Origin: a virus
DNA: 64,000 nt
Reading direction: 5' to 3' (one strand)
IMG/VR virus record: IMGVR_UViG_3300033977_000049
Location: 1 to 64,000 of that record
The notes under the pieces are model-generated. The model worked only from the letters and a program-made list of their open reading frames with translations. It did no database searches and was not told where the DNA came from. Numbering within the stretch: position 1 is the first letter of the stretch; every line of letters begins with the position of its first letter. Position numbers and translations under genes: made by a program. Below are positions 3,300-56,563 of this stretch, one piece after another.

Positions 3300-4421
3300 A
3301 TGCCAAAAAGAATCATAGACGGAGAGGCCCTTTGGACATCTCAAAAATTAAAAAATGTTCCCTATGAATATAGACTTCATTATGCCATGTGGATACCATT
3401 AGCAGAGGCTAACGGATGTTTTGAGGCTTCCGTGCCTTTAATTAAATCAAAAGTTTATTCATTTTTATTTCCAGATATAGAATTGCAAACTATAGAAGAT
3501 ATATTAACAAGTTTTTGCCGAGTAGGATTAATTAATCTATATAATGCCCGTGGGAAAAAATGGGGATTTTTCGTTGGAATTGATAAACCAGGTAGATTAC
3601 CTTCTAAAAAACACTTAGATAGATATCAAAATTTACCTCCAGGTCCTATGGATATAAAATCTGTCCCGGAAAGTCCGGGACCGGGAGAGGATAAAACCCA
3701 AACCAAACCAATCCAAAACCAAACCAAACCCTTCGGGCATAGTCCCGGACTAGAATATGATGAAAATCAAAAAAAAGACTTATATTCGGAGGAAGAAATG
3801 TCAAGCCTTATAAAAGAAATTAGAGGAATTTGTATTAAATATTTTGGAGCTTACGAACCGTTAAAACAGATGGGTGATCCGACTGTGGAGGTTTTGAATG
3901 AATACGCTGAAGCTTTTGGTAGACAATTTGTCATAGATTCTTTTGAAGATTTTATTAAAACCCAAGGCTCTGATATAGGCCCGTATCCTATCAGGAAGTT
4001 TCTACATTACGCGCCGGATATTTTTAAGGGTAAAAAGATTTTTAAGCCCGATGATATGCTGCAAAATCTTCTTGAAAAGATTATCCGAATTTCTGGATCT
4101 GATGTTACTTTTAGCGCGGCTCAACTTGGAGCAGTTAAAGATTTATTGGATAAATATGGAGAAAAAGATTTTCTTCTGGCTTATCGGGATTTTTATTCTC
4201 GCATCCAGGGAGATGATTTTCAATTAAAGAATGCCGGAAAGCAATGGGCTGAAAGGGGTGAGCAATTTATTATGAATCTGAATATTGCCCGTGAGCGCCA
4301 ACAGGAACGAAATATCCTAGCGGGAAAATTAGAAAAATTGGGAAGGGAACAAGTTGATAAAGTTAGGCAAGAAAGAGAGAAAAAAGAAAAAGAAGAAATG
4401 GAAACGGAGGTTCCAATATAA
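3300..4421 (+). CDS. Phage replication initiator protein
   Basis: MPKRII..LWTS.KL N-terminal winged-helix-like domain, low-complexity linker containing DNA repeats, position upstream of primase-helicase. Confidence 0.65.
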   Translation: MPKRIIDGEALWTSQKLKNVPYEYRLHYAMWIPLAEANGCFEASVPLIKSKVYSFLFPDIELQTIEDILTSFCRVGLINLYNARGKKWGFFVGIDKPGRLPSKKHLDRYQNLPPGPMDIKSVPESPGPGEDKTQTKPIQNQTKPFGHSPGLEYDENQKKDLYSEEEMSSLIKEIRGICIKYFGAYEPLKQMGDPTVEVLNEYAEAFGRQFVIDSFEDFIKTQGSDIGPYPIRKFLHYAPDIFKGKKIFKPDDMLQNLLEKIIRISGSDVTFSAAQLGAVKDLLDKYGEKDFLLAYRDFYSRIQGDDFQLKNAGKQWAERGEQFIMNLNIARERQQERNILAGKLEKLGREQVDKVRQEREKKEKEEMETEVPI

Positions 4422-5008
4422 TGAAACAAGCATATAAAATAGCGATTATTGCGGCCCTTGCATATCTGGTTGGATTTGGAATTACAATAACTTTGGCGTA
4501 TAAACAGGCCTTGCCAACTCTTCCATTTTATAACAACGCATCGGGAGATAAAGAAGAAAAAGCTATACCCGCAACCGACGAAGAAATTAAGGCGCTATCT
4601 AATCAGTCTAAAGAAGCTATGAAAGTTTTTGCGGCTGCGATAGTATTAGAATCAGGCATTGATGTAGAGGCAGCGCAAGAAAATAAAGATATTATTCAGC
4701 ATGTCATGGAAATATTAGGAAAAATTGAAAAACAACCGCAGTTATTTAATTCGCCCCTTGGATTTGATTTAGTATGGGAATTAGATAATGCTTCTTACAA
4801 TGCTTTATGGTGCGTGGGAGTGACAGAACATATCGCGGCAGTTTCTTTATACAATAAAGAAGAAATAGACCCCGGATTGATTGAGGTTAATAAGGCTTGT
4901 AAAGCTGCTAATCATGCCTTATACGAAGCTTCTATCGTGGCACCGAGATTGTATCGCCAGTATCTTCTAGATCATACAAAATCACAGAAATTACAGGCGG
5001 GATTATAA
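4421..5008 (+). CDS. Membrane-anchored hypothetical protein
   Basis: N-terminal transmembrane segment IAIIAALAYLVGFGITITLAY. Confidence 0.6.
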   Translation: MKQAYKIAIIAALAYLVGFGITITLAYKQALPTLPFYNNASGDKEEKAIPATDEEIKALSNQSKEAMKVFAAAIVLESGIDVEAAQENKDIIQHVMEILGKIEKQPQLFNSPLGFDLVWELDNASYNALWCVGVTEHIAAVSLYNKEEIDPGLIEVNKACKAANHALYEASIVAPRLYRQYLLDHTKSQKLQAGL

Positions 5009-17877: not shown

Positions 17878-20800
17878 TTACTCTTCTTCCCAAGGCCTTG
17901 ATCCGGGGAACGTCCTAAGAATCCATTGATAAGTTGGATCTGCTTTTCTTTCAGCCGGGGTCATTTTCTTTAATGCCTTCGTCTGGTAAGCCTTTTTCTT
18001 TTGTAGCATTAAGGCCGAAAGAGATGTTTTTTCAGAACTAGTCATTAAATCCCACACTTGTAAAAAATCCGGCATGGCTAGCCTACTACATCTGAGATAT
18101 AGCCTAGCTAATGCCGGGTCCATACCTCCTGTAGTTCTAATTTCTTTTACAATACGCTTAGCTTCATCAAGCGGAATCTGCCCATCTTCAACCATTTGAT
18201 GTAAATCTTGTTGGCTTATTTCGCCCTTACGAAGTTGATCTTCATATTCCAACATTAATTGATGTTTGCGAAGGGCGGCTTCATCCACTGGACCTTCTTC
18301 AGTTCTATTAGTAGCTAATTGTATGGCCTTACTTTCAGCCTCAGATCTTAATGGAGTAGGAATAATTCCAGCACCCCTTAATCCCTGTTGCCAACTAGGA
18401 ATTTCGGCAGGCATTTCACCCGCTGCGGATTTGCCTATATATTGCAGTGAAATGGGCATAACATTACGGACCACATCCATAGTTTGCTGCCATGGGGTTA
18501 ATTTTCTGCCTAAAGCATCTCTGCCACTATATAAGCTGGTAGCCATGCGCATAGTAGGACTTGCCCGACCACGCATAAAGCCAACCGGATCATCAGCCAT
18601 ATGAAACATATCGCCCGGCAAGGTCCGCATACTCCAAACTTTTTTATGGCCTTCTTTATCTTCTGTAACTATGCCAAATGGAGCTTCTGGATGCGCCTGT
18701 CCGTTATTTACAAGCATATTGACGGCCCTAGCGGTTACCCACATTGCGCCTACAAAATAAGCCATATCGCGGCGTAATAATTTCCCCCCGGTGGGATCGA
18801 ATAATCTTTTGACTAAGCGGACTTCAGATTCCAGCCAATCTGGAGCTAGAGTAACCAAGCGGAACCAATCTTGAGTACCAACAGATCTTCCCATATCTCG
18901 GTAATTCAATCCACCAAATCTTTCATTGGTTTCGATAGCCGCTGCCCTTGCCGCTGCCCTGATTGGATCAAGGCCAGAAAAATCAGGATGGGCCTGTAAA
19001 TATCGCTCATATAATTTTGGATCTTTGGCAAATCTTTCTCGCCATTCCCCAAATAATTTTTTCCCCACCATGGCTTTAAGGCTAGGCATTAATCTTTCAA
19101 AAGTAAATTCTTGTAGCCAATTTTGCGCATCGCGTATTCCAGGCATTTTTCTTAACAATATACTTTTAGTCCCGCTAGCCGATAATCCTTCGCTAAAGTC
19201 TGATTCTGCCTGGAATCGATGGCCTAATGTCATTGACTGTTCAACTAACATAGCTAGGTCTGGATCTGTTTTTAAATCCCACTTAACTAGTCTTGGTATT
19301 ACACCACTCATAAGGGAACGCAATCCAAGTTGACTGATATGAAAGGGTGATAATGATAATAGAATTTGTTTAAATTGTGTTCCTAATCCTAATACAGCCC
19401 GGCCAACAGCGCTTCCGCGCAGCGGAGATTGTTCGAGTCCTAATCTGCGAGTCACATATTGATAAACATCGGGATGAACCCTTACATCACCCTTAACTAA
19501 GACTGGAGTTCCATCAGGCGCATAAGCAGCCCAATTCCAATGCCTAAAGGCTGGATGGTCAATGGTCATGTAATCATGTGTATTATAGAGATATATTGGA
19601 TCGCCTTTTGGACGCTGAAGCGTGGCATCTAAAGGATCTTTAGGCGGTGGATTATCTGGTACTCCGGTTAATCTTTGTGTCTTATCTTCTATGGCGGGAG
19701 GCAATGCCATTTCTTCTCCGGATATAGGCCCACCCTTTTCTTGAAGTAATATATTTTCTTTATTGGCCCTATTTATTAATTTCCTTGTAATATCTTTTAT
19801 AGTACCATGATAATGATTATATTGCCTATCCTCCCATTCTTCTAGTGGTATTTCTCTTAAAACAGATATATATATATCTGAATTATCTGGAGATGCCGGT
19901 AGTCTATTTAAAGTATCTAGAGCGGATTGATAACTAGATGTTTCAATGTTCCATTGTTTATAATCGGGTGCATTATCTGATTTCCAAGATCTAATTCTAA
20001 TATAACCCCTGTCTATTGCTTTATTGCTAGCCTCCTCTCCAGTTCCAAATCGTTCGGGTAATATATCTGGATGTTCAGATCCTTCTGGTAATTCTTTGAA
20101 TTTTCCAGATGGAGAAATCCATCCACTTCCGGTAATGGATTCTTGAATGCCCATTCTTTGAAATAGTAATTTAGGAGGTTTTGTTGGAAAATCCACAAAT
20201 CCCTTTGGTTCTTTATAGTTATACCGACCCGAATATCCTGCCGCCCTTAAAGCATTATCTACTCTATCTTGAACATATCTAGGATCGATCAATTCTACTC
20301 TGGCAAGTTCTCTGGCAATATATGCAAGATGGTTGGTATCATTATTAGCTGCTGTTTTTTGGATATTTTTTAAATCTTCGGGTCTGGATTTTTCAGCCAT
20401 TTTCAAAATATGCCTTAACGAATCTGCATAGATTTCTGGATCTTTTATAATAGCATCATTATGCCGAAGTCGCATTTGCCTAAACCATTCATTCATTGGC
20501 ATTGGATGATCCCATAGCAAGGCAGCGCCATCTTTTACAGCTTGATCCCGTTCATCCCATGCCGGAGATTCTTGAAATAAAGCTGTAGGATTAGAAGGTA
20601 TATTTTCTATAGATCGTGGAGTTGAATATGCTTCTGTATTTAATTCATTAGAAATCCTACCATGAATATTATGTTCACCCATCATGCCATATCGCAATGC
20701 TCGAATGGCATCAATAGGATCGCTAGTGATAAATGGTTTTGATTTGCCGCTGAAAATGCTGAACGATTCGGCATCTCCGAATCTTTCCTGGATGGCCCTA

Positions 20801-23800
20801 GCAATAGCATTTTTCGCGGCTATATCAAATTTCCCAGCTTCAAACCAATATCCATTTCCATTCTTGCCAAATTTTATAGCTCCCTTTTCCAAGGCGCTGT
20901 CAACTGTATCTCCCAATCCATATTTCAGCATGGATGATAATTTCAAATTTTGTTCGTGAGTGCTAAATTTTCTTATTGGAATTATATCGTTTCCAATAAT
21001 CCAACCCTGTTCATACGGCTTGCGCGTTATTGGCTTGGGGATTTCGGCTCTAAGGCGTAAGATACTGTCGGCTTTGGCTGCCCTGTTTTTTTCGAGATCG
21101 GTTCTGTAATCCTGGATGCGTGTGGCAATATCTTGCAAAGTCTTAATATCAGGTTTTTCAACTGAGCCTTCCTCGATTCTTGTGACTGCATCTTTTGCTG
21201 CGCGTTCTGCGTTCTCAATAACGCCTGGATCAATTCCTGCTCCTGTGAGGGCATCTCTTACCTCCTTATCGGTTGCTAAAAGTTCTACTAAATCTGTGGT
21301 CTGTGCTTTTAATTCTTTTTGCCATATATCCGGACTGGATTCCATTTGTTTAACAATAAAATCTAATGGCTTGCTACTCGCTGTATCCAATCCACTTAAT
21401 TCCGCTAGGGTTCTCATAAATATCCATACTGAGGCCTGCGCTTGTGATGGAGTCCAGTTTAAATCCTTGGCTATGTTTCTTAATTGAGCTTGATATAACA
21501 AATATTCATGAGGCCTGCCTTGATAATCAAACGGTTTTTGGCCCTTAAACAATTGCATCCATGTATCAATTGTAGCTCGATGGTTATTGCCCATTAAATT
21601 AGCGAAGAAGGCAGAAACTTTTGGCCCTGAAAGATCACTCCATTCCGATAGGGTTGACATAATATTGTCCGGGACTTTATATGGTCGTGGTTCTCCGGTG
21701 CGATAATCTCTATAATCATCATAATATTCAGAACCGGCTAGATCTGTTCCAATTTTTTGAGATTCAATTGCCCTGCCATGCGCTATATCAGTAATTGATT
21801 TTCTGTCCGCTGGCCTTCCTTTATCATTCCAATCTCCCCATATCTGCAAAGCCTGGATAAGGTCCGTTTTTACAGCCTTACGGGGAGAAATGGCAGCAAG
21901 TAATTTAGTAAAAATTGGAAAATCTTCCGGATTGAATATTTTTTGGAATCCAGCTAAATATCTATCATACCAGAAACGGCCTCCTGCGCCCACTAATGCG
22001 GCAGCTTTTAATTGTTCGGGCATTGCTTTATCGGCGGTATCTGCTGCCAAATATAATTTTTGATAATGCGGTGACAGTTTATTCCATTCCCATTGGTCAA
22101 TACCTGAAGGCGTGGGAGTCTGTTGTTTTCCATATCTTTCCGCTCCATGGGATTCATCAATTAAATCCTGGGCATGTTTATAAATCTCACCCATTGCATG
22201 ATGCAAGCGGGGATCTATTTCTTCGGCCAACTTTCTAGAATACAAGGCATATCTTTCCCTGGCTTCGTTGACGATTTTTTCTAAAGGCGAGGCGGATTCA
22301 TGCAAGGTGGTAATATCAATATCTGGGGCTAGTTGAAGTAAAAATTCCGCTCCTTTAGTTGCGGCAGCATGCAATTTGTCAGTACTTATAGCTGGAAGTC
22401 TACGTTTTAAAGATTCTGGCATGCTGTTAAGCATTTGGCTTGCCAATCCATAAAGCTTGCCAGCAAAATTTCTTAACATTGTAGTATCTGCCCAGCTTTT
22501 TTCTAGGGCATTTTCATCAAAATCAGCCTCGGATGCGGTGGTAAGTTTTTTGGCTAATTCAGTTCCCTCATATACTGCTGTGTTATAAATATTGGCATGG
22601 GAGATATTATCCGCATTCTTTTGCAACCAATCCACGGTACGAGCCATAGATTCGGCTGTTTCTCCCGGAAGTCCGATCATGATGTTGGGAATCAGGGCAA
22701 TATCCGCTTCCTTTAGCCTGGCGGCTGCCTTATCAATTAACTGCTCTGTAGCTGGTTTGTGCAATTCTTTCAATAGATCATTATTATAAGTTTCTACTCC
22801 GATTTCCGCAAAGCGGATACCAGATTTCTTTAACCAATCAATGGAAAATTTATTTGCTTGCGCGGCTGTGGTTTGTATAATGAATCCGCCAAAATCGGGA
22901 TTAATATCCTTGATGCGGTTATAAAGTTCCGGAAGCATTTCATAATTGGGAGCTTGCCCAAATGTTTTGTCGTTCAGATATACCAATCTCGAACCTAGCT
23001 TGCCAATAGCATCGGCCTGTTGATTAATAGCTTCTGGAGATGGCATTTCAATGCGTTTTTCTATCGTACAAAAGGCGCATTTATGTAGGCATCCAGTAGA
23101 CATGGTAAGGCGAGGAATAACATCCTGGCCAGATTCTTTGAAGTGGCGATAGTCCACGCCTTCTTTATACGGCACGCCCATGTCACGGGCTAGGCTTGCC
23201 ATATTATCATGCCATTTTACATTAGGTAAATCTTTAAAGAATTCCGCTCCACCGCTATATCCGCCAACATCTATATGGCCTTTATAGGCAGATGCTATAT
23301 TACGGATCATATCTCTATTAACATCTAGTGCTGAAAATGCTATTCTTCCATATCCGGCCTTACTCAAAAAATCTTTAGCTTCCGATAAACTACGGATCAC
23401 ATATGCATCAGCATCGGGAATAAAATTAGAAGCAAATCCCATCCACTGCGGAATCTCCCAAAAATCATCTAGGCGTTTATATCCCGGCCTGCTACCATCA
23501 TATAATTTATCATAATAACGGCTTTCCATAACCTCTTCCGGCAATCGAGGTTCGCTTGATTCTGGGTTAATTAGCTTATTGGATATTTGAACGAGCAATG
23601 TTCTATGAGCATTGCCGGTTTCTCGCGCTCCCTTGCCCGTGTCTACGGATCTACGTATCCAGGGGTTTCCGGTATCAGCAGATGCTTCCTTATAGGTATA
23701 ATTGGGATTGGAAATATCGCTTCCATCAATATTTAGAAGCTTTAGATCTGGCAACCCCTCCCTGGATCTTATTTCTTCGGCACTTAAAGGAATATTAGCT

Positions 23801-26800
23801 AAATCAATTGAATCTTTTCCTTGCAGGAGAGTATCATTTGGTCTAGCCAGCTTTCTCATTGCCTGTTTACGAAAACCAAATTCCGAATCGTTAGCTTCGG
23901 CAAGATTTCTATAAGCCAAATGTCCATAACCCTCTCGATCAACATTCCAGTCAATTCCAATAGGGCTATTAGGATGAGTTTTTAATCTAGTTAAGGCATC
24001 GGAAACTTGCTCAATTGTATTAGGATTGAGTCGCCCAAATTGAATACCTACAAATCCAGCATGTTGATCGCCTGGATTCATAATACGGATTAATCCTGCA
24101 TTAAATGCATCTTCATAGTCTGTATATCCATGCTCTGTCAACCATTCAGGATGCCCAAGGGGAACCGTTTCAGATCGGCCATCGGGAAAGATAAATGAAG
24201 ATCCCTCAACCGGGCCTAATATTATGCTAGGGCGCTTTCCTTTTATATCCACTCCAGCTTCTTCCCGAACTTTATCCTTCATTTGCAGGAGAACATTAAA
24301 TTGTTGCTGTTCAAATTTCCTGCCTTGTTCTTTTCTCATTTCCCCAAGGCGATCTTCGGGATTAGGCCATGCCGCGTCCCCTGGTTTTATACCGGTTCCA
24401 CCGGTGGAAATAAATGGATAATTTTTACCATCAAGATGTACGATTCCCTGCTGGTTATATTTTTTCCCCAGCATCATAGCTTGCCCTATATCCGGCACAG
24501 TTACACTAACTTCCATTATCCATTGTTTAGCATCTTTATCATACCAAACTCCTACGTTATTAGAAGGATCGCGCAATAATCCTATTATTTTAGGGCTAGC
24601 AATAAACCCCTGCACTTCTTTAGCAGTAGGTTTATGATCTAATTTAATTGTATATTCATTTTCGGGATAGATACTAACTGCATATTCTCCCGAAACTCCC
24701 ATATTACCGCGATATAAATTAAAGGTAGCTCCATTATTAGCCTGAACTAAATCAGAAATAGCTTCATGGGGATTTAATATTTCTTTTCTAGGTCTACCTA
24801 TGCGTCCGAATATTTCTTCAAGAAAAGGAGGTAGTGGGATCTTAAGCATTTGGGCAGATGGATTTCTTAGGCCATCATATATATCTCTCATCCACCGCTT
24901 GAACTTAGCAAATACCCCTGCCATTTCCGGTACATAAGTTCTACCGGTAATTAAATGAGATTCCAAAGCTCTTGCAGTTTTTTCTTCAGCATCAACAGTC
25001 CATGTTCCGTTTTTCACTCCAGCCCAATTTTCTAATATCCTTAAATCTTCTTCCGGTAGCCCTCTCCGGAAAACGTGGAACATTTCATGCACAAGCGTAC
25101 TAAAATCGGCCCCTTGCATAGCGCGTATAATCACCTTGCCATCATTCTGAAAATCGGCCATGCCTTTTACACCGGCCCATCTTTCTCTAGGTATGCCAGC
25201 AGCCCTTAAATGCTCTTCAGTCCCTCGTTCAAATCCTTCTAATCCTCTTTCCCTCCAATATTCTTCTAGTGACACCCCTCGCATGCGAGCAAAGGCGCGA
25301 GCCAAGGAAATTCCACCCTCCACTTGTTCATCTGTTAATCCCATTCCCCAGGCATCTTTAATTTGCTGTCTAAATTTATCTGTAACAGGTTCCAGTCCAA
25401 CCGTTTCTTGTAATAATGGCTTTTCTACTTTAGGAACCGCTTCTTCTGGGGGAGCTAATTTAGGAAATCTGACAACAATATCACCATTTTTAATGGCCTT
25501 ATCTAATGTTCCTTCTTTTCTCCTAGCTTCGATTTCCTTAGCGGCAATGCGAATATCTCTAATTCTACGTCCGTCAATCAAAAGAAATGGATTTTCACCA
25601 TTAGGCATTTCCACAACTTTTCCGGAACCGGAATAGGCTGCTATTGGCCTGCCATCTGAAGTTTTATTACCGCGATCAATCATATCGGCTACAAATTCAC
25701 GAGCCGCAATAGCCTCTCCCAAACGGGCTTTATAATTAGCCATTAATTCAATAGGATCGGTTATAAGAAGTTTTTTACCCAAAAGCATGCCCAGCACTGT
25801 ATCATCTATAATACGATGATTCAGCATGGAAATATTAGTATGAAATTCTGAATAGTTTCTTATTTCATGCACAAAACGATTAACTGCCTGATTATCGGTA
25901 TCTTTACCCCAAATACGAGTAATATAATCTTCGATAAAAGGTATGTGTATATCATGCAGGGCCGCATTTGCTAAATCCGCTGCAAATTCATTTTCAGACA
26001 ATTTTGCCAATTCCCGAATACGGGCAGTAGGATTAATTGATTTTTCATATATCTTGATTATTCTATCAATTTCTTCTGGAGTATATTTTGTTGATACTAA
26101 ACGACGCCCCGCAACCTCCAGTTTTCTTTTATCCATTTCTTCATGAATAGAAGTCAGGTCCGGCCTAATATCAGTCCGTCCCATTTCTAGCACAGGAATG
26201 TGTTCAAATCCTAAATCTTTATAGGCTTGCAAAGCATATCTTCCATTAACGCCAACAATATTACCTTCCGCATCTCGATAAATTTCAATCGGATCTATCG
26301 GCCTTCCCGCTCTAATGCGATGAATAACAGTATCAATATTCTTTTGGGCTTCTTCTCTAAGCTCTGGAGACATGCCTTGACGTATATCAAGGCTTCCAGA
26401 TGTTGCCATAAGCGTAGCATCAACAGATTTAAGAATAGGCTCTTGATTAGCCCTAGCGTTTGGATCGTAAATTTCAGCGCGGGGCCTTAATCTTTCTGTG
26501 TCTTCGGCGGTAGCCCTTCCAGCCGATTCTTTGAATAAACTTAAATCTCTCTGAAGAGCTTCTTTATCTTCTCCTCTATCCCTTAAAAGAAAGGCAGCAA
26601 ATCTATCTTCAGGATTTACATCTTTAAATGTTTTGTTTTTATCAGCCCTAAATAAATCCGCCGTTCGATTTACTTCGGTAACTTTTCTATCAAATTCACC
26701 ACCCATCTGTCGTGTTTTTTGAGCTTCCTCGCTAGGTATTAAATTTTGAATTCCAAATTTTTCTGCTAATGCTCCCACTTCTGGCCTTAAATGAGCGCGA

Positions 26801-27900
26801 GCTTGAAATCCTGCTGCCACTCCTAGTCCTATATTACCCAAAATAGAAGGTGCCATTTCAAGTGCTTGTGCCGGATCTTCAGAAAGAGCCTTTCTAAATT
26901 GAGGATATTGGTATATCGCTCCCAATATCATATTTGTACTAAAACCTAAATCAGTTAACCCCTGTATGGTTTTTGCAATAGTATCAGCCTTGGTTAATGG
27001 CATTCTAGCGCTACGAAGTATAGCGCCAAGTCCATTAATAATCAGTCCGCGATTTCTTAAATCGGAAAGATCAAGCCCTATCCTTCTTAGCCAATATCTT
27101 CCTTCTGTAAATAAGCGAGGATTAATGCCAGCCGATGAAAGAGCTTCTGGAACGCTTCTTCCTAAAGACATGGCTTTTTCAGCTATTTGTGCTCCACGGG
27201 CGATTTCTCCTATTTCATCATTTGTAAATAATCTAGCGGCAGCGGCAACTCCCTGCTTGCCTAGCGCTTCAATGGTTTCTTTACTGGCAGCACCAGCCGC
27301 TACATCTCTAAGCGCTGCCTCTCCAGCCGCCGTACCCAATCCACCTCCCCAGGTTCCTATAGTCAATGCGAGCATAGCAGGAGCGGTTTGAGAATATAGC
27401 AAATCTGTAATAAATCTACCCACACCTCCCACAAGTGCTCCAGTATATTTCCCGGCAGCCTCTCCAGCAAAAGTGCTAACAGCTTCTTTAGTGGATTCTC
27501 CGATCTCTTTAGCCCATCTTCCTCCTTCATATTTTAATACATCTGGTAATCCCAAGGCATCAACTATTTGATTGCCCTTAGGTTCCCAAATCCAATCCCA
27601 CATAGATCTGATAACGCCTTCTTTATCTCGCTGGGAAGTGGCAGGTGGGGCTATAGCCGGTTCGGTAGAAACTGGAGTTGAACTGATCGGAATTAATCCT
27701 AATTCCTCTGGGCTTTTGTAACCAATGGATTCTTTTGTTATAGAAGTTAATGGTGTTAGCCCAAGTTCTTCAGGAGATTTATAAGTAGTAGGAAATCGCC
27801 CTGCTATAGGCGGTGCTACTGGCATGGGAGATTTAGCTTTTGTTGCTACGGGAATTAATCCAAGCTCTTCCGGCGATTTGTAAATATCTTGATCTGCCAT
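17878..27900 (-). CDS. Giant (3340 aa) internal virion/ejection protein of large-polyvalent-protein type
   Basis: Last gene of the structural arm; contains degenerate ParB-like, HExxH metallopeptidase, SAM-lyase-like, CxxxCxxC radical SAM and glycosylase-like segments. Confidence 0.8.
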   Translation of the reverse strand: MADQDIYKSPEELGLIPVATKAKSPMPVAPPIAGRFPTTYKSPEELGLTPLTSITKESIGYKSPEELGLIPISSTPVSTEPAIAPPATSQRDKEGVIRSMWDWIWEPKGNQIVDALGLPDVLKYEGGRWAKEIGESTKEAVSTFAGEAAGKYTGALVGGVGRFITDLLYSQTAPAMLALTIGTWGGGLGTAAGEAALRDVAAGAASKETIEALGKQGVAAAARLFTNDEIGEIARGAQIAEKAMSLGRSVPEALSSAGINPRLFTEGRYWLRRIGLDLSDLRNRGLIINGLGAILRSARMPLTKADTIAKTIQGLTDLGFSTNMILGAIYQYPQFRKALSEDPAQALEMAPSILGNIGLGVAAGFQARAHLRPEVGALAEKFGIQNLIPSEEAQKTRQMGGEFDRKVTEVNRTADLFRADKNKTFKDVNPEDRFAAFLLRDRGEDKEALQRDLSLFKESAGRATAEDTERLRPRAEIYDPNARANQEPILKSVDATLMATSGSLDIRQGMSPELREEAQKNIDTVIHRIRAGRPIDPIEIYRDAEGNIVGVNGRYALQAYKDLGFEHIPVLEMGRTDIRPDLTSIHEEMDKRKLEVAGRRLVSTKYTPEEIDRIIKIYEKSINPTARIRELAKLSENEFAADLANAALHDIHIPFIEDYITRIWGKDTDNQAVNRFVHEIRNYSEFHTNISMLNHRIIDDTVLGMLLGKKLLITDPIELMANYKARLGEAIAAREFVADMIDRGNKTSDGRPIAAYSGSGKVVEMPNGENPFLLIDGRRIRDIRIAAKEIEARRKEGTLDKAIKNGDIVVRFPKLAPPEEAVPKVEKPLLQETVGLEPVTDKFRQQIKDAWGMGLTDEQVEGGISLARAFARMRGVSLEEYWRERGLEGFERGTEEHLRAAGIPRERWAGVKGMADFQNDGKVIIRAMQGADFSTLVHEMFHVFRRGLPEEDLRILENWAGVKNGTWTVDAEEKTARALESHLITGRTYVPEMAGVFAKFKRWMRDIYDGLRNPSAQMLKIPLPPFLEEIFGRIGRPRKEILNPHEAISDLVQANNGATFNLYRGNMGVSGEYAVSIYPENEYTIKLDHKPTAKEVQGFIASPKIIGLLRDPSNNVGVWYDKDAKQWIMEVSVTVPDIGQAMMLGKKYNQQGIVHLDGKNYPFISTGGTGIKPGDAAWPNPEDRLGEMRKEQGRKFEQQQFNVLLQMKDKVREEAGVDIKGKRPSIILGPVEGSSFIFPDGRSETVPLGHPEWLTEHGYTDYEDAFNAGLIRIMNPGDQHAGFVGIQFGRLNPNTIEQVSDALTRLKTHPNSPIGIDWNVDREGYGHLAYRNLAEANDSEFGFRKQAMRKLARPNDTLLQGKDSIDLANIPLSAEEIRSREGLPDLKLLNIDGSDISNPNYTYKEASADTGNPWIRRSVDTGKGARETGNAHRTLLVQISNKLINPESSEPRLPEEVMESRYYDKLYDGSRPGYKRLDDFWEIPQWMGFASNFIPDADAYVIRSLSEAKDFLSKAGYGRIAFSALDVNRDMIRNIASAYKGHIDVGGYSGGAEFFKDLPNVKWHDNMASLARDMGVPYKEGVDYRHFKESGQDVIPRLTMSTGCLHKCAFCTIEKRIEMPSPEAINQQADAIGKLGSRLVYLNDKTFGQAPNYEMLPELYNRIKDINPDFGGFIIQTTAAQANKFSIDWLKKSGIRFAEIGVETYNNDLLKELHKPATEQLIDKAAARLKEADIALIPNIMIGLPGETAESMARTVDWLQKNADNISHANIYNTAVYEGTELAKKLTTASEADFDENALEKSWADTTMLRNFAGKLYGLASQMLNSMPESLKRRLPAISTDKLHAAATKGAEFLLQLAPDIDITTLHESASPLEKIVNEARERYALYSRKLAEEIDPRLHHAMGEIYKHAQDLIDESHGAERYGKQQTPTPSGIDQWEWNKLSPHYQKLYLAADTADKAMPEQLKAAALVGAGGRFWYDRYLAGFQKIFNPEDFPIFTKLLAAISPRKAVKTDLIQALQIWGDWNDKGRPADRKSITDIAHGRAIESQKIGTDLAGSEYYDDYRDYRTGEPRPYKVPDNIMSTLSEWSDLSGPKVSAFFANLMGNNHRATIDTWMQLFKGQKPFDYQGRPHEYLLYQAQLRNIAKDLNWTPSQAQASVWIFMRTLAELSGLDTASSKPLDFIVKQMESSPDIWQKELKAQTTDLVELLATDKEVRDALTGAGIDPGVIENAERAAKDAVTRIEEGSVEKPDIKTLQDIATRIQDYRTDLEKNRAAKADSILRLRAEIPKPITRKPYEQGWIIGNDIIPIRKFSTHEQNLKLSSMLKYGLGDTVDSALEKGAIKFGKNGNGYWFEAGKFDIAAKNAIARAIQERFGDAESFSIFSGKSKPFITSDPIDAIRALRYGMMGEHNIHGRISNELNTEAYSTPRSIENIPSNPTALFQESPAWDERDQAVKDGAALLWDHPMPMNEWFRQMRLRHNDAIIKDPEIYADSLRHILKMAEKSRPEDLKNIQKTAANNDTNHLAYIARELARVELIDPRYVQDRVDNALRAAGYSGRYNYKEPKGFVDFPTKPPKLLFQRMGIQESITGSGWISPSGKFKELPEGSEHPDILPERFGTGEEASNKAIDRGYIRIRSWKSDNAPDYKQWNIETSSYQSALDTLNRLPASPDNSDIYISVLREIPLEEWEDRQYNHYHGTIKDITRKLINRANKENILLQEKGGPISGEEMALPPAIEDKTQRLTGVPDNPPPKDPLDATLQRPKGDPIYLYNTHDYMTIDHPAFRHWNWAAYAPDGTPVLVKGDVRVHPDVYQYVTRRLGLEQSPLRGSAVGRAVLGLGTQFKQILLSLSPFHISQLGLRSLMSGVIPRLVKWDLKTDPDLAMLVEQSMTLGHRFQAESDFSEGLSASGTKSILLRKMPGIRDAQNWLQEFTFERLMPSLKAMVGKKLFGEWRERFAKDPKLYERYLQAHPDFSGLDPIRAAARAAAIETNERFGGLNYRDMGRSVGTQDWFRLVTLAPDWLESEVRLVKRLFDPTGGKLLRRDMAYFVGAMWVTARAVNMLVNNGQAHPEAPFGIVTEDKEGHKKVWSMRTLPGDMFHMADDPVGFMRGRASPTMRMATSLYSGRDALGRKLTPWQQTMDVVRNVMPISLQYIGKSAAGEMPAEIPSWQQGLRGAGIIPTPLRSEAESKAIQLATNRTEEGPVDEAALRKHQLMLEYEDQLRKGEISQQDLHQMVEDGQIPLDEAKRIVKEIRTTGGMDPALARLYLRCSRLAMPDFLQVWDLMTSSEKTSLSALMLQKKKAYQTKALKKMTPAERKADPTYQWILRTFPGSRPWEEE

Positions 27901-54564: not shown

Positions 54565-56563
54565 TTAAGGAGCGACAGCTTCAATCCTACGCAGAGTCAT
54601 AACGGAGCCGGGTCGCAATGTGTTAGTATATTTCACATTATATGAAACCCAACCACCAATTTGACGGGCAGGATCGGAAACGGAACCACTAGCTGGTGCC
54701 TCTTGGATCATGAGGCGGTAATTTTTCTCACCAGTTGTGGGGTTTTTACCCAAGAACACACTGAATATAGCGTCATCACCAAATACATATGTGATATATT
54801 TGGGAACGCCATCCACGGTCGGCGTGGGGCAAGTCGTGGTTTGCTTGAAGCGGCATCCGGCAAATTCGATCACTTCATCATCAGTGAGAGGAGAGAACAA
54901 TTTGCGGACGGTACTTTCATTGCGCTTCAAAATGTCAGTCAATCCATTGTTAGTTGTGTCGTTAAGAATATCCTCAACAACATAAGGATGAATAATGCCT
55001 CCCCAATAACCATCTTTGGTTAGGGGGCGAGCATTAACGCCCTTAAGAGACTGAGTAGCAGCACGGATAGTCGATGCGGTAACGAGTGCACCACCAGTAA
55101 GGTCGATGTTTACATTACCATCAACCGCCGCAGCAGCATCAGCCGTCAACTGAACAAGGGTATTAAGAGACAGTGCCAACCGGTAATTCAGTTCGGTAGC
55201 CAAATTTTGGAGCAGAGACGGATCATCAATTGCCACGTCCATCGCTAGATCGGAACTGTTAATAAAATCACAATATTGTCCGATTGTGGCGACTATCTTT
55301 GACGTAGACTCTGAGATCGGAGATCCAACTGAACCTTCACTAGCAGGTTGAGTGTTAGCACCAAATAGCGAATAAGTGAAGAATTGGATCTGGTTCCCGG
55401 CATGGAGCGGAAGGGGCTTCTGCTTAGTCATAAGCAAGAAGGGCGTTTCCGCTTTCAGGTTTGGGCAAATGTGTTTAGGCTTTAATTATCACTAATAAAG
55501 CGCTCTACATGTTACCATGTAGTTCGGACTCTATCTTAACTTCCAAAGAAGTTTCCGGCGTATTAGTCTCTGGGGATAATGGCTGATAAAGTTTTTGGAA
55601 TTGTTGATATAAATCTTCTCTAGCTTCCTGATTTACTTTACTATCTAAACGTATAAATTGTAAAATCAAGTTTGCTTCTTGTTTTTTTAATATTAAATAT
55701 GGCAATATTGCCAGTAGAAGATTTTCTTGAATTTCATTCCCGAATATAGTCCATCGGAAAGCAGGTATATAATTTTCATTTGCAGAATGTTTTGGTTTAA
55801 ATATTCCACCAAAATGTAAAACTAAATATTCCATTAATGCCCTACTGCAATTAGTAATATTTATAACCTTGTGATAGCAATAGCCATTGGCATTATATTG
55901 TTTAGTTTTAATTATTCTTAAAGAACCCTCGCCATCGATTAATGCTGCAAGGTAGGAAAAATCTGATTTTGTATTATGCATTAATCCAATAGATTTCGAT
56001 GACCCGCTATTTAATATCTTACTTTTAAAATAAAAATTTTCACGTATATCGGGAATGATTTTATTTCCTAAATCAATAAAAGAAAGACATAATTTTGCCT
56101 GTTCTTTTTTAATGATAAGGGAATCTAAAACAGATAGTAACAGAGACTTTATCCTCTCTTTACCACCATGCGGTTCCCAATTAAAAGATCTTGTTCCGGG
56201 TTTAAAGGAACCGCCAAAATGCTTTATTAGGTAATTCATTAACCTTTTATCTTTATTAGATACGCTAAGATTAATAGAATATCCCCAATAGCCTTTTTGA
56301 TTTTTACAGCGATAGACACCAATATTGCCTTCTCCGTCAATTAATCCCGCAAGATAAGCATAATGTCTATCTTTTCTAGCCATTCTTTCCTCCGTCTAGT
56401 CCTCCCACAATCATTATAACATATTTTTTAAAAAATATGTGGATTTTGACGGATATAGCCGAATTTAAAGGCGACCAAATTTTATCGCCTGACGCTCATA
56501 GAAAATGGCAACCAAGTTCGGGAATGTTCCCGAAGTTAACACCGAAGCAGGAGTATAACTCAT
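54565..56563 (-). CDS. Major capsid protein, N4-gp56 family; spliced, exons 56563-56484 and 55465-54565 (326 aa)
   Basis: Joined exons read MSYTPASVLTSGTFPNLVAIFYERQAI/PNLKAETPFLLMTKQKPLPLHAGNQIQF; motifs EG..G, QY.DF...SD, IIHP, DP..Q.G. Confidence 0.88.
55466..56483 (-). mobile_element. Group I self-splicing intron
   Basis: 5' exon ends in U; P1 GGCGAU/GUCGCC with U.G wobble; R element CAGAGACUA; S element AAGAUAGAGUCC; terminal omega-G; splicing restores the frame. Confidence 0.9.
55505..56383 (-). CDS. Intron-encoded double-motif LAGLIDADG homing endonuclease
   Basis: YLAGLIDGEG and YLAALIDGEG motifs; ORF runs through the P7 core. Confidence 0.92.
   Translation of the reverse strand: MARKDRHYAYLAGLIDGEGNIGVYRCKNQKGYWGYSINLSVSNKDKRLMNYLIKHFGGSFKPGTRSFNWEPHGGKERIKSLLLSVLDSLIIKKEQAKLCLSFIDLGNKIIPDIRENFYFKSKILNSGSSKSIGLMHNTKSDFSYLAALIDGEGSLRIIKTKQYNANGYCYHKVINITNCSRALMEYLVLHFGGIFKPKHSANENYIPAFRWTIFGNEIQENLLLAILPYLILKKQEANLILQFIRLDSKVNQEAREDLYQQFQKLYQPLSPETNTPETSLEVKIESELHGNM

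Follow-up and report, generated by a model that had tools for sequence, protein, structure and literature searches.

Only Gly56, Glu69, and Gln104 are strictly conserved in active S-adenosylmethionine (SAM) lyases, in which Tyr58 packs on the substrate (PMC7877911); the Glu follows the β2-β3 loop, and the Gln lies in the loop before β4 (PMC7877911; PMC12255297). The latter residue, Q104 in Svi3-3 and Q94 in the T3 enzyme (T3 SAMase), is described as the B-loop Gln, and genuine SAM lyases superpose at ~2.1 Å over >100 residues (PMC12255297). A preliminary description of a 64,000-nucleotide stretch of viral DNA (positions 1 to 64,000 of the IMG/VR virus record IMGVR_UViG_3300033977_000049; the whole stretch is referred to below as the window) had placed a domain resembling these enzymes in an injected protein. 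The full record is 87,974 bp long and is estimated to be 89% complete. We find that the domain, which lies in a 3340-aa open reading frame (ORF) named P0001, is autonomous and belongs to a family that is shuffled among giant, fused, and stand-alone proteins and that is linked to a small partner gene. We lean, with some reserve, toward reading it as a mobile module that serves phage polyvalent and MuF-type proteins as effector “cargo.”

Extent, family, and predicted fold of the domain

The peptide that drew attention to P0001 (VGVWYD...QQGIVHL) is present as residues 1116 to 1156 (window positions 24433-24555, minus strand). The interval originally given, 24400-24745, holds the core of the domain, but the true domain is wider, extending over residues ~1041 to 1185 (Table 1), and the family hidden Markov model (HMM) matches window positions 24325-24789 (E = 3.4e-49). 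A phmmer search with residues 1030 to 1180 against 1.84 billion cluster representatives returned 533 representatives at E <= 1e-3, 86 of them at E <= 1e-10, and the matches always span query positions ~17 to 145. Figures for architecture, conservation, and co-occurrence refer to the best 149 of the 533 matches (148 aligned copies; 150 proteins listed).

The domain is stand-alone (<=260 aa) in 45 of these 149 proteins, C-terminal in 28, N-terminal in 4, and internal in 72, and among the 150 proteins listed, 82 are longer than 700 aa and 43 longer than 1500 aa. When P0001 is compared with the family proteins by BLAST, the shared part is restricted to residues ~1001 to 1200, the DUF7178 region excepted; DUF7178 is the sole other part of P0001 that recurs with the domain (~15 to 19 of the 149 proteins). 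Fused members carry MuF, 2'-5' RNA ligase/Acb1-like, DUF7178, and LPD38 domains. A word-indexed search limited to giant proteins returned only P0098.

Near-invariant positions in the 148 aligned copies comprise the G and T of GG-x-T-x-N, the V of Y-A-V-S, the P of Y-P-E, and the G and W of G-x-W, together with the D/E of L-D-V-S (99%), the A (97%) and L of the next helix, the Q of Y-N-Q, and the L of the next strand. The window copy retains every one of them, its acidic residue being Glu where most members have Asp.

Sequence databases gave little to name the domain by. No Pfam family was matched (hmmscan, E <= 10), and the stand-alone members likewise lack Pfam families and informative names; PHROGs gave nothing beyond phrog_3718 at E = 0.29, and PDB sequences (phmmer and profile hmmsearch) gave no informative match and no SAM lyase. 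In tblastn, neither the domain nor two of its stand-alone homologues gave an informative match among 50,697 phage records; a plasmid search with the domain was equally uninformative, and no viral relatives turned up in single-protein scans with P0053, P0020, or the window domain.

AlphaFold2 with family alignments modeled the window domain with a predicted local distance difference test (pLDDT) score of 94.8 and a predicted template modeling (pTM) score of 0.88, and the stand-alone member P0048, which is 35% identical, with a pLDDT of 94.6. In both models, a helix and three strands are followed by a second helix, a long beta-hairpin, a third helix, and two final strands. The part that begins with the third strand reads beta-alpha-beta-beta-alpha-beta, with an added N-terminal helix and strands, and the weak structural neighbors over model residues ~38 to 126 (SPOR, RRM, ACT, and SAM lyases) are ferredoxin-like. 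The element order and these neighbors suggest a ferredoxin-like core. Foldseek returned no match at E <= 0.001 for either model in the PDB, and in BFVD it returned 21 viral proteins at E <= 1e-3 (TM scores up to 0.77), all uncharacterized. Some, of 104 to 140 aa, stand alone in phages of Gordonia, Microbacterium, and Salinibacter; in other cases, the homologous part lies within a protein of 800 to 1100 aa annotated with XkdF or Zeta-toxin domains.

A signal peptide or lipobox was flagged in 23 of 86 short members (~27%) by a heuristic screen (mean Kyte-Doolittle value of >=2.2 for a 12-residue stretch among the N-terminal ~70). The flagged set includes P0006, P0010, P0014, P0022, P0038, P0066, P0073, P0146, and P0203 to P0210, and several signal-bearing members have a lipobox-like L-x-G-C. 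A secreted subgroup of ~300 aa (P0014, P0205 to P0207, and P0210) has an extra N-terminal domain that starts C-G-F-V-x-G-F.

A partner gene in bacteria and in a MuF locus

One stand-alone member is encoded on a 6.1-Mb Chthonomonadaceae contig. Among 151 Armatimonadota genomes searched with the family profile, five contain the family, as seven full-length copies and one truncated copy, and at all seven full-length loci a homologous ORF of 96 to 135 aa lies directly 3' of the family gene (Table 1). At one of them (L003), the start of the partner overlaps the stop of the family gene by 4 bp. The partner profile is found in exactly the same five genomes, adjoining every family copy, and there is one additional solitary partner. 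The family proteins are acidic (isoelectric points of 4.1 to 5.1) and the partners are basic (6.7 to 9.8), and the two diverge in step. The partner has ~85 conserved residues (consensus ...G..R.FTQ.V.V.D..LFARL..EV..G..I..TIV.E....G..TYL.DF) and matches nothing in Pfam or the PDB; it could be an immunity protein, an antitoxin, or, with the roles swapped, the toxin itself.

Conserved neighbors other than the partner were considered and rejected, as proteasome-like, RNA ligase, PPDK, and MazG genes differ between stand-alone loci. At G146:C4:1949990-1950661, the truncated family gene precedes a partner copy with an in-frame TGA; the two seem to be in joint decay, as would fit a functional link between them.

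A copy fused to MuF is arranged similarly. At IMG/VR locus L019, the gene after the portal gene encodes a MuF protein of 834 aa that has the domain as its final ~160 residues (E = 1.4e-56). Of 501 ORFs from nine related loci, the partner HMM matches just one (E = 0.0014), the 88-aa ORF that lies downstream of this MuF gene and overlaps it. The MuF protein of locus L018, the N-terminal part of which is 51% identical to that of L019, has an HExxH peptidase domain at its end in place of the family domain, and the small ORF after it is a different one. This layout matches that described for polymorphic toxins of the MuF type and the immunity genes that accompany them (PMC5576092). The domain family thus occupies a variable C-terminal slot, as seen in L019 versus L018 and in the preponderance of C-terminal over N-terminal fusions, whereas the window copy is internal and in a non-MuF protein. 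The small downstream partner accompanies the seven stand-alone loci and L019 but neither the window copy nor the copy at locus L027; its profile has no match in the window, the whole phage record, or L027.

Other features of these two loci were also noted. The MuF gene of L019 (3366-5870) is interrupted by an intein-like insert (…VYNLQTTDGWYFANGIITHNC…) inside which lies a 303-aa ORF on the opposite strand (4092-5003, minus strand); the insert looks like a mobile insertion within a head-morphogenesis gene. L027 (3001-5820) encodes a 939-aa phage protein with the domain at its C terminus, in a gene that follows a tape-measure/transglycosylase-like gene. This protein has a RelA/SpoT-like nucleotidyltransferase motif (GYRDI…EIQI), read by eye, a further pairing with a toxin-type module.

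Possible function and comparison with SAM lyases

Three lines of evidence argue for an effector. The domain occupies toxin-type slots, namely, the MuF C terminus and positions alongside Zeta, RelA/SpoT-like, and Acb1-like domains; its invariant residues form a catalytic-looking constellation; and it is tied to a small coevolving partner. By analogy with the MuF systems, the domain would supply the activity, which is potentially toxic, and the partner would inhibit it; the partner is present where the producer must survive and missing where the domain sits in a giant structural-module phage protein. In P0001, the partnerless domain would then most likely act on the host, after delivery or release, as an enzyme or tight ligand binder, with a putative working face built from the G-x-W, D/E-x-S, N-Q, GG-x-T-x-N, and GGTG motifs and with SAM as one candidate substrate.

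Several points weigh against this reading. No activity is known for any family member, and the partner linkage is drawn from one phylum and one phage, the match of the L019 partner being weak (13.6 bits). The packaging of P0001 in the virion is deduced solely from gene position. Exported members fit a secreted protein and are not obviously compatible with a cytoplasmic toxin/antidote pair. Furthermore, an acidic upstream protein followed by a basic downstream one is the usual type II polarity of antitoxin and then toxin, so that the roles of the two proteins could be reversed.

Such a reversal would make the domain a nonenzymatic, antitoxin- or immunity-like neutralizer and the basic partner the toxin, with the phage copies in injected polyvalent proteins disarming partner-like host toxins as a counter-defense. 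The commonest type II toxin-antitoxin polarity, here including an overlapping stop and start, is consistent with this, as are the strict but patchy co-occurrence of the pair (5 of 151 genomes) and the presence in the window phage of the domain without the partner. However, the invariant G, W, D/E, Q, and T persist in stand-alone, secreted, and fused forms that mostly lack the partner, and such invariance across contexts points to a fixed ligand-binding or catalytic site rather than to a coevolving protein interface. The C-terminal slot of MuF proteins is, in addition, a toxin slot (PMC5576092), and a globular protein of 175 aa in which no DNA-binding region was detected would be an atypical antitoxin. 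We regard a neutralizing role as unlikely. Still further down in our estimate, and very improbable, is an envelope-directed ligand binder, e.g., one with SPOR-like peptidoglycan binding, that aids P0001 in the periplasm during genome ejection.

The remaining alternative, close to what was first proposed, is that the domain is a very distant member of the phage SAM-lyase superfamily (T3 SAMase/Svi3-3; PII-like), converting SAM to methylthioadenosine (MTA) and homoserine lactone and thereby disabling SAM-dependent restriction or bacteriophage exclusion (BREX) systems soon after infection begins, with the bacterial partner as its inhibitor. The T3 pattern on which the proposal relied is accurate; the product of T3 gene 0.3 (NC_003298) reads ...TGCYREAISSAPTEEKTVRVRCKDKAQALNVARLACNEWEQDCVLVY... 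in this region. The hallmark residues are likewise present in P0001 as G1117, W1119, E1130, S1132, and Q1150. The hallmark of the SAM lyases is a Gly, an aromatic residue at +2, a Glu at +13 (with S/T at +15), and a Gln in the loop preceding the last core strand (PMC7877911); the family has 99% G, 99% W, 99% D/E, and 98% Q at these positions, and its invariant G-x-W, D/E-x-S, and N-Q reproduce the hallmark G-x-Y…E-x-S/T…Q. G-x-W sits where G56-x-Y58 does, with Trp replacing Tyr; the Gly-to-acid spacing of 13 equals that of T3 (G55 to E68) and of Svi3-3 (G56 to E69); and the N-Q loop is placed as is the B-loop Gln. Since the parallel falls on the most conserved positions of the family, it goes beyond a one-off look-alike. 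The domain also resembles the SAM lyases (PF23780, Svi3-3 [PDB 6ZM9], and SAM-AMP lyases) in being a small alpha+beta protein of similar size and compatible element order that is phage-borne and sometimes fused to other domains. A likeness of YAVSIYPE to T3 YVLVSAFR was judged by eye only.

However, the motif and profile comparisons stop short of homology. The regular expression G.[YFW].{10}[DE].[ST].{10,40}Q picks out T3 SAMase relatives (at G53/G55) along with 80 of the 149 family domains, and it matches unrelated sequence 5 times in 125,812 residues (~0.005 per 135 aa); ~1 chance match is thus expected per 64-kb window, and the motif alone is therefore no demonstration of homology. PF23780 (S-AdoMet_lyase) has no match over the whole 88-kb record at E <= 10, and hhalign, run with 41 or 148 family sequences against an alignment of 16 T3-SAMase sequences, gave a probability of 0.5 to 0.7%, below usual thresholds, its sole local alignment pairing VSVTVPD..YNQ with VRVRCKD..YEQ. 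The SAM-lyase signature contains nothing that corresponds to the GG-x-T-x-N and GGTG motifs.

Structural comparison was similarly two-sided. Svi3-3 and T3 SAMase are among the tied-best neighbors; both solved SAM-lyase types recur within 1 Z unit of the best match for the two models, with the top identities in the lists, and the structural alignments cover ranges colinear with the alignment of the motifs. However, the Z scores are weak (2.5 to 3.5) and are the same as those of SPOR, RRM, ACT, GyrI-like, and eIF4E chains, which contrasts with the close superposition of genuine SAM lyases described above. Foldseek gave a TM score of 0.19 and an E value of 0.47 for the SAM-lyase comparison, and no SAMase is among the top 50 BFVD matches, whereas the 21 uncharacterized homologues are. 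The exported appearance of about a quarter of the short members also argues against a SAM lyase; SAM is not expected outside the cytoplasm. The idea of a SAM-centered cassette with the radical-SAM enzyme was rejected for want of co-occurrence, as none of the 149 other representatives examined covers P0001 residues 1401 to 1850, in which the radical-SAM domain lies. We treat kinship with SAM lyases, suggestive but short of proof, as a hypothesis and not as an annotation: homology appears doubtful to us, actual cleavage of SAM by the domain would be improbable, and we give the alternative as a whole little weight. The label is nevertheless worth a simple assay.

Genomic setting and relation to known systems

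Genes for the large terminase, portal, major head, and collagen-like tail-fiber proteins lie at 33 to 63 kb of the window on the same strand as P0001, as do several glycosyltransferase genes. Across the whole of P0001, Pfam detects only Radical_SAM (residues 1600 to 1759) and DUF7178 (Table 1), and PHROGs detects phrog_9880, over a region with the motif HEMFH (residues 911 to 1013), and phrog_3842. P0001 is thus very large and carries Radical_SAM, DUF7178, the HEMFH region, and the flagged domain, which shuffle independently, as is typical of polyvalent proteins. By its gene position and by analogy with such proteins (PMC5512222), P0001 may be packaged in the virion and ejected from it.

The HEMFH motif (HExxH) is at window positions 25075-25089 (residue 938), in the phrog_9880 region upstream of the domain. 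An obligate pairing of this region with the domain was rejected, residues 951 to 1000 being covered by at most 6 matches. The L-L-Q motifs VLLQM (24280-24294) and PLLQE (25405-25419) flank the domain and the HExxH region; if cleaved, these sites would free a fragment of ~375 aa holding both. Elsewhere in the window, a double HNH endonuclease ORF (55505-56383, minus strand; phrog_5046 and phrog_12980) lies within the head-gene block, directly upstream of the major head gene (54565-55437), a position that suggests a homing element in the head module.

Table 1. Coordinates of P0001, of its domains and motifs (window positions), and of the partner ORFs (positions within each locus)
Feature	Position	Strand	Remarks
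P0001 giant ORF	17878..27900	(-)	Polyvalent-type protein closing late/structural gene block
DUF7178	21412-21666	(-)	P0001 residues 2079-2163; Pfam
Autonomous domain	24346..24780	(-)	Residues ~1041-1185; phmmer, family HMM, AlphaFold2, BLAST coverage
TGGTG loop and P-x-x-x-R-L tail	24337..24405	(-)	C-terminal end of domain; GGTG 63-80%, tail Arg 55% conserved
YNQQGI, N1149-Q1150	24442..24459	(-)	Loop between helix 98-107 and strand 112-115 (model); Q 98%, N 81% conserved
MEVSVTV, E1130-x-S1132	24496..24516	(-)	Hairpin strand 2; D 94% and E 5% conserved
VGVWYD, G1117-x-W1119	24538..24555	(-)	Hairpin strand 1 (model strand 74-81); G 99%, W 99% conserved
YAVSIYPE strand motif	24661..24684	(-)	Consensus Y-A-V-S-x-Y-P-E-R; V 95%, P 89% conserved
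NNGATFNL N-terminal motif	24715..24738	(-)	Family consensus GG-x-T-[FY]-N-L; G 97%, T 93% conserved
Partner ORF, L003	6525-6815		3' of domain gene
Partner ORF, L012	5633-5953		3' of domain gene
Partner ORF, L013	6461-6835		3' of domain gene
Partner ORF, L014	6576-6977		3' of domain gene
Partner ORF, L015	6532-6921		3' of domain gene
Partner ORF, L016	6522-6818		3' of domain gene
Partner ORF, L017	5584-5991		3' of domain gene
Partner ORF, L019	5867-6133		3' of domain gene

Polyvalent proteins and polymorphic toxin/immunity systems are already known, but the domain family and the partner family appear undescribed in the literature searched, which contains no mention of DUF3293 or DUF7178. Of 41 stand-alone members, 4 matched DUF3293 (PF11697) weakly along the segment A-x-x-L-G-x-x-Y-N-Q-x-x-I, the best match having an E value of 0.028 and 15.4 bits. 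All of these matches are far below the curated cutoff (25 bits), and there are none in the window domain or the phage record; a DUF3293 phage protein is at rank 32 of the BFVD matches, with a TM score of 0.39. We know of no function for DUF3293.

A more far-reaching proposal, which we consider unlikely, is that the family is a deep, so far unrecognized branch of the SAM-lyase/PII-like superfamily and acts as a widely used metabolite-destroying effector that is checked by a small inhibitor of its own in bacteria and MuF toxins and is inhibitor-free in giant virion-module proteins. If this were true, premade, virion-borne depletion of SAM (or of a related sulfonium or nucleotide metabolite) would be a common phage strategy.

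The described systems closest to the domain also include the MuF polymorphic toxins (PMC5576092) and the polyvalent proteins (Iyer et al. 2017; PMC5512222). As in the former, the L019 copy is a C-terminal extension of a MuF protein whose gene adjoins the portal gene and is followed by an overlapping small ORF. However, the toxin families described there do not include the domain, Pfam does not match it, its toxicity is putative, and the window copy is internal to a 3340-aa protein with neither a MuF domain nor a partner. With regard to the polyvalent proteins, the domain matches no Pfam LPD model, and P0001 additionally carries a radical-SAM domain, whereas a term search of the paper (PMC5512222) found no mention of radical SAM. 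P0001 is nevertheless, like the polyvalent proteins, a giant protein built of domains that are also found in other combinations; LPD38 is present in one homologue of the flagged domain, and the other companions of this domain, which are HExxH peptidase-like, Acb1/2'-5' ligase-like, and RelA/SpoT-like, are of the conflict type.

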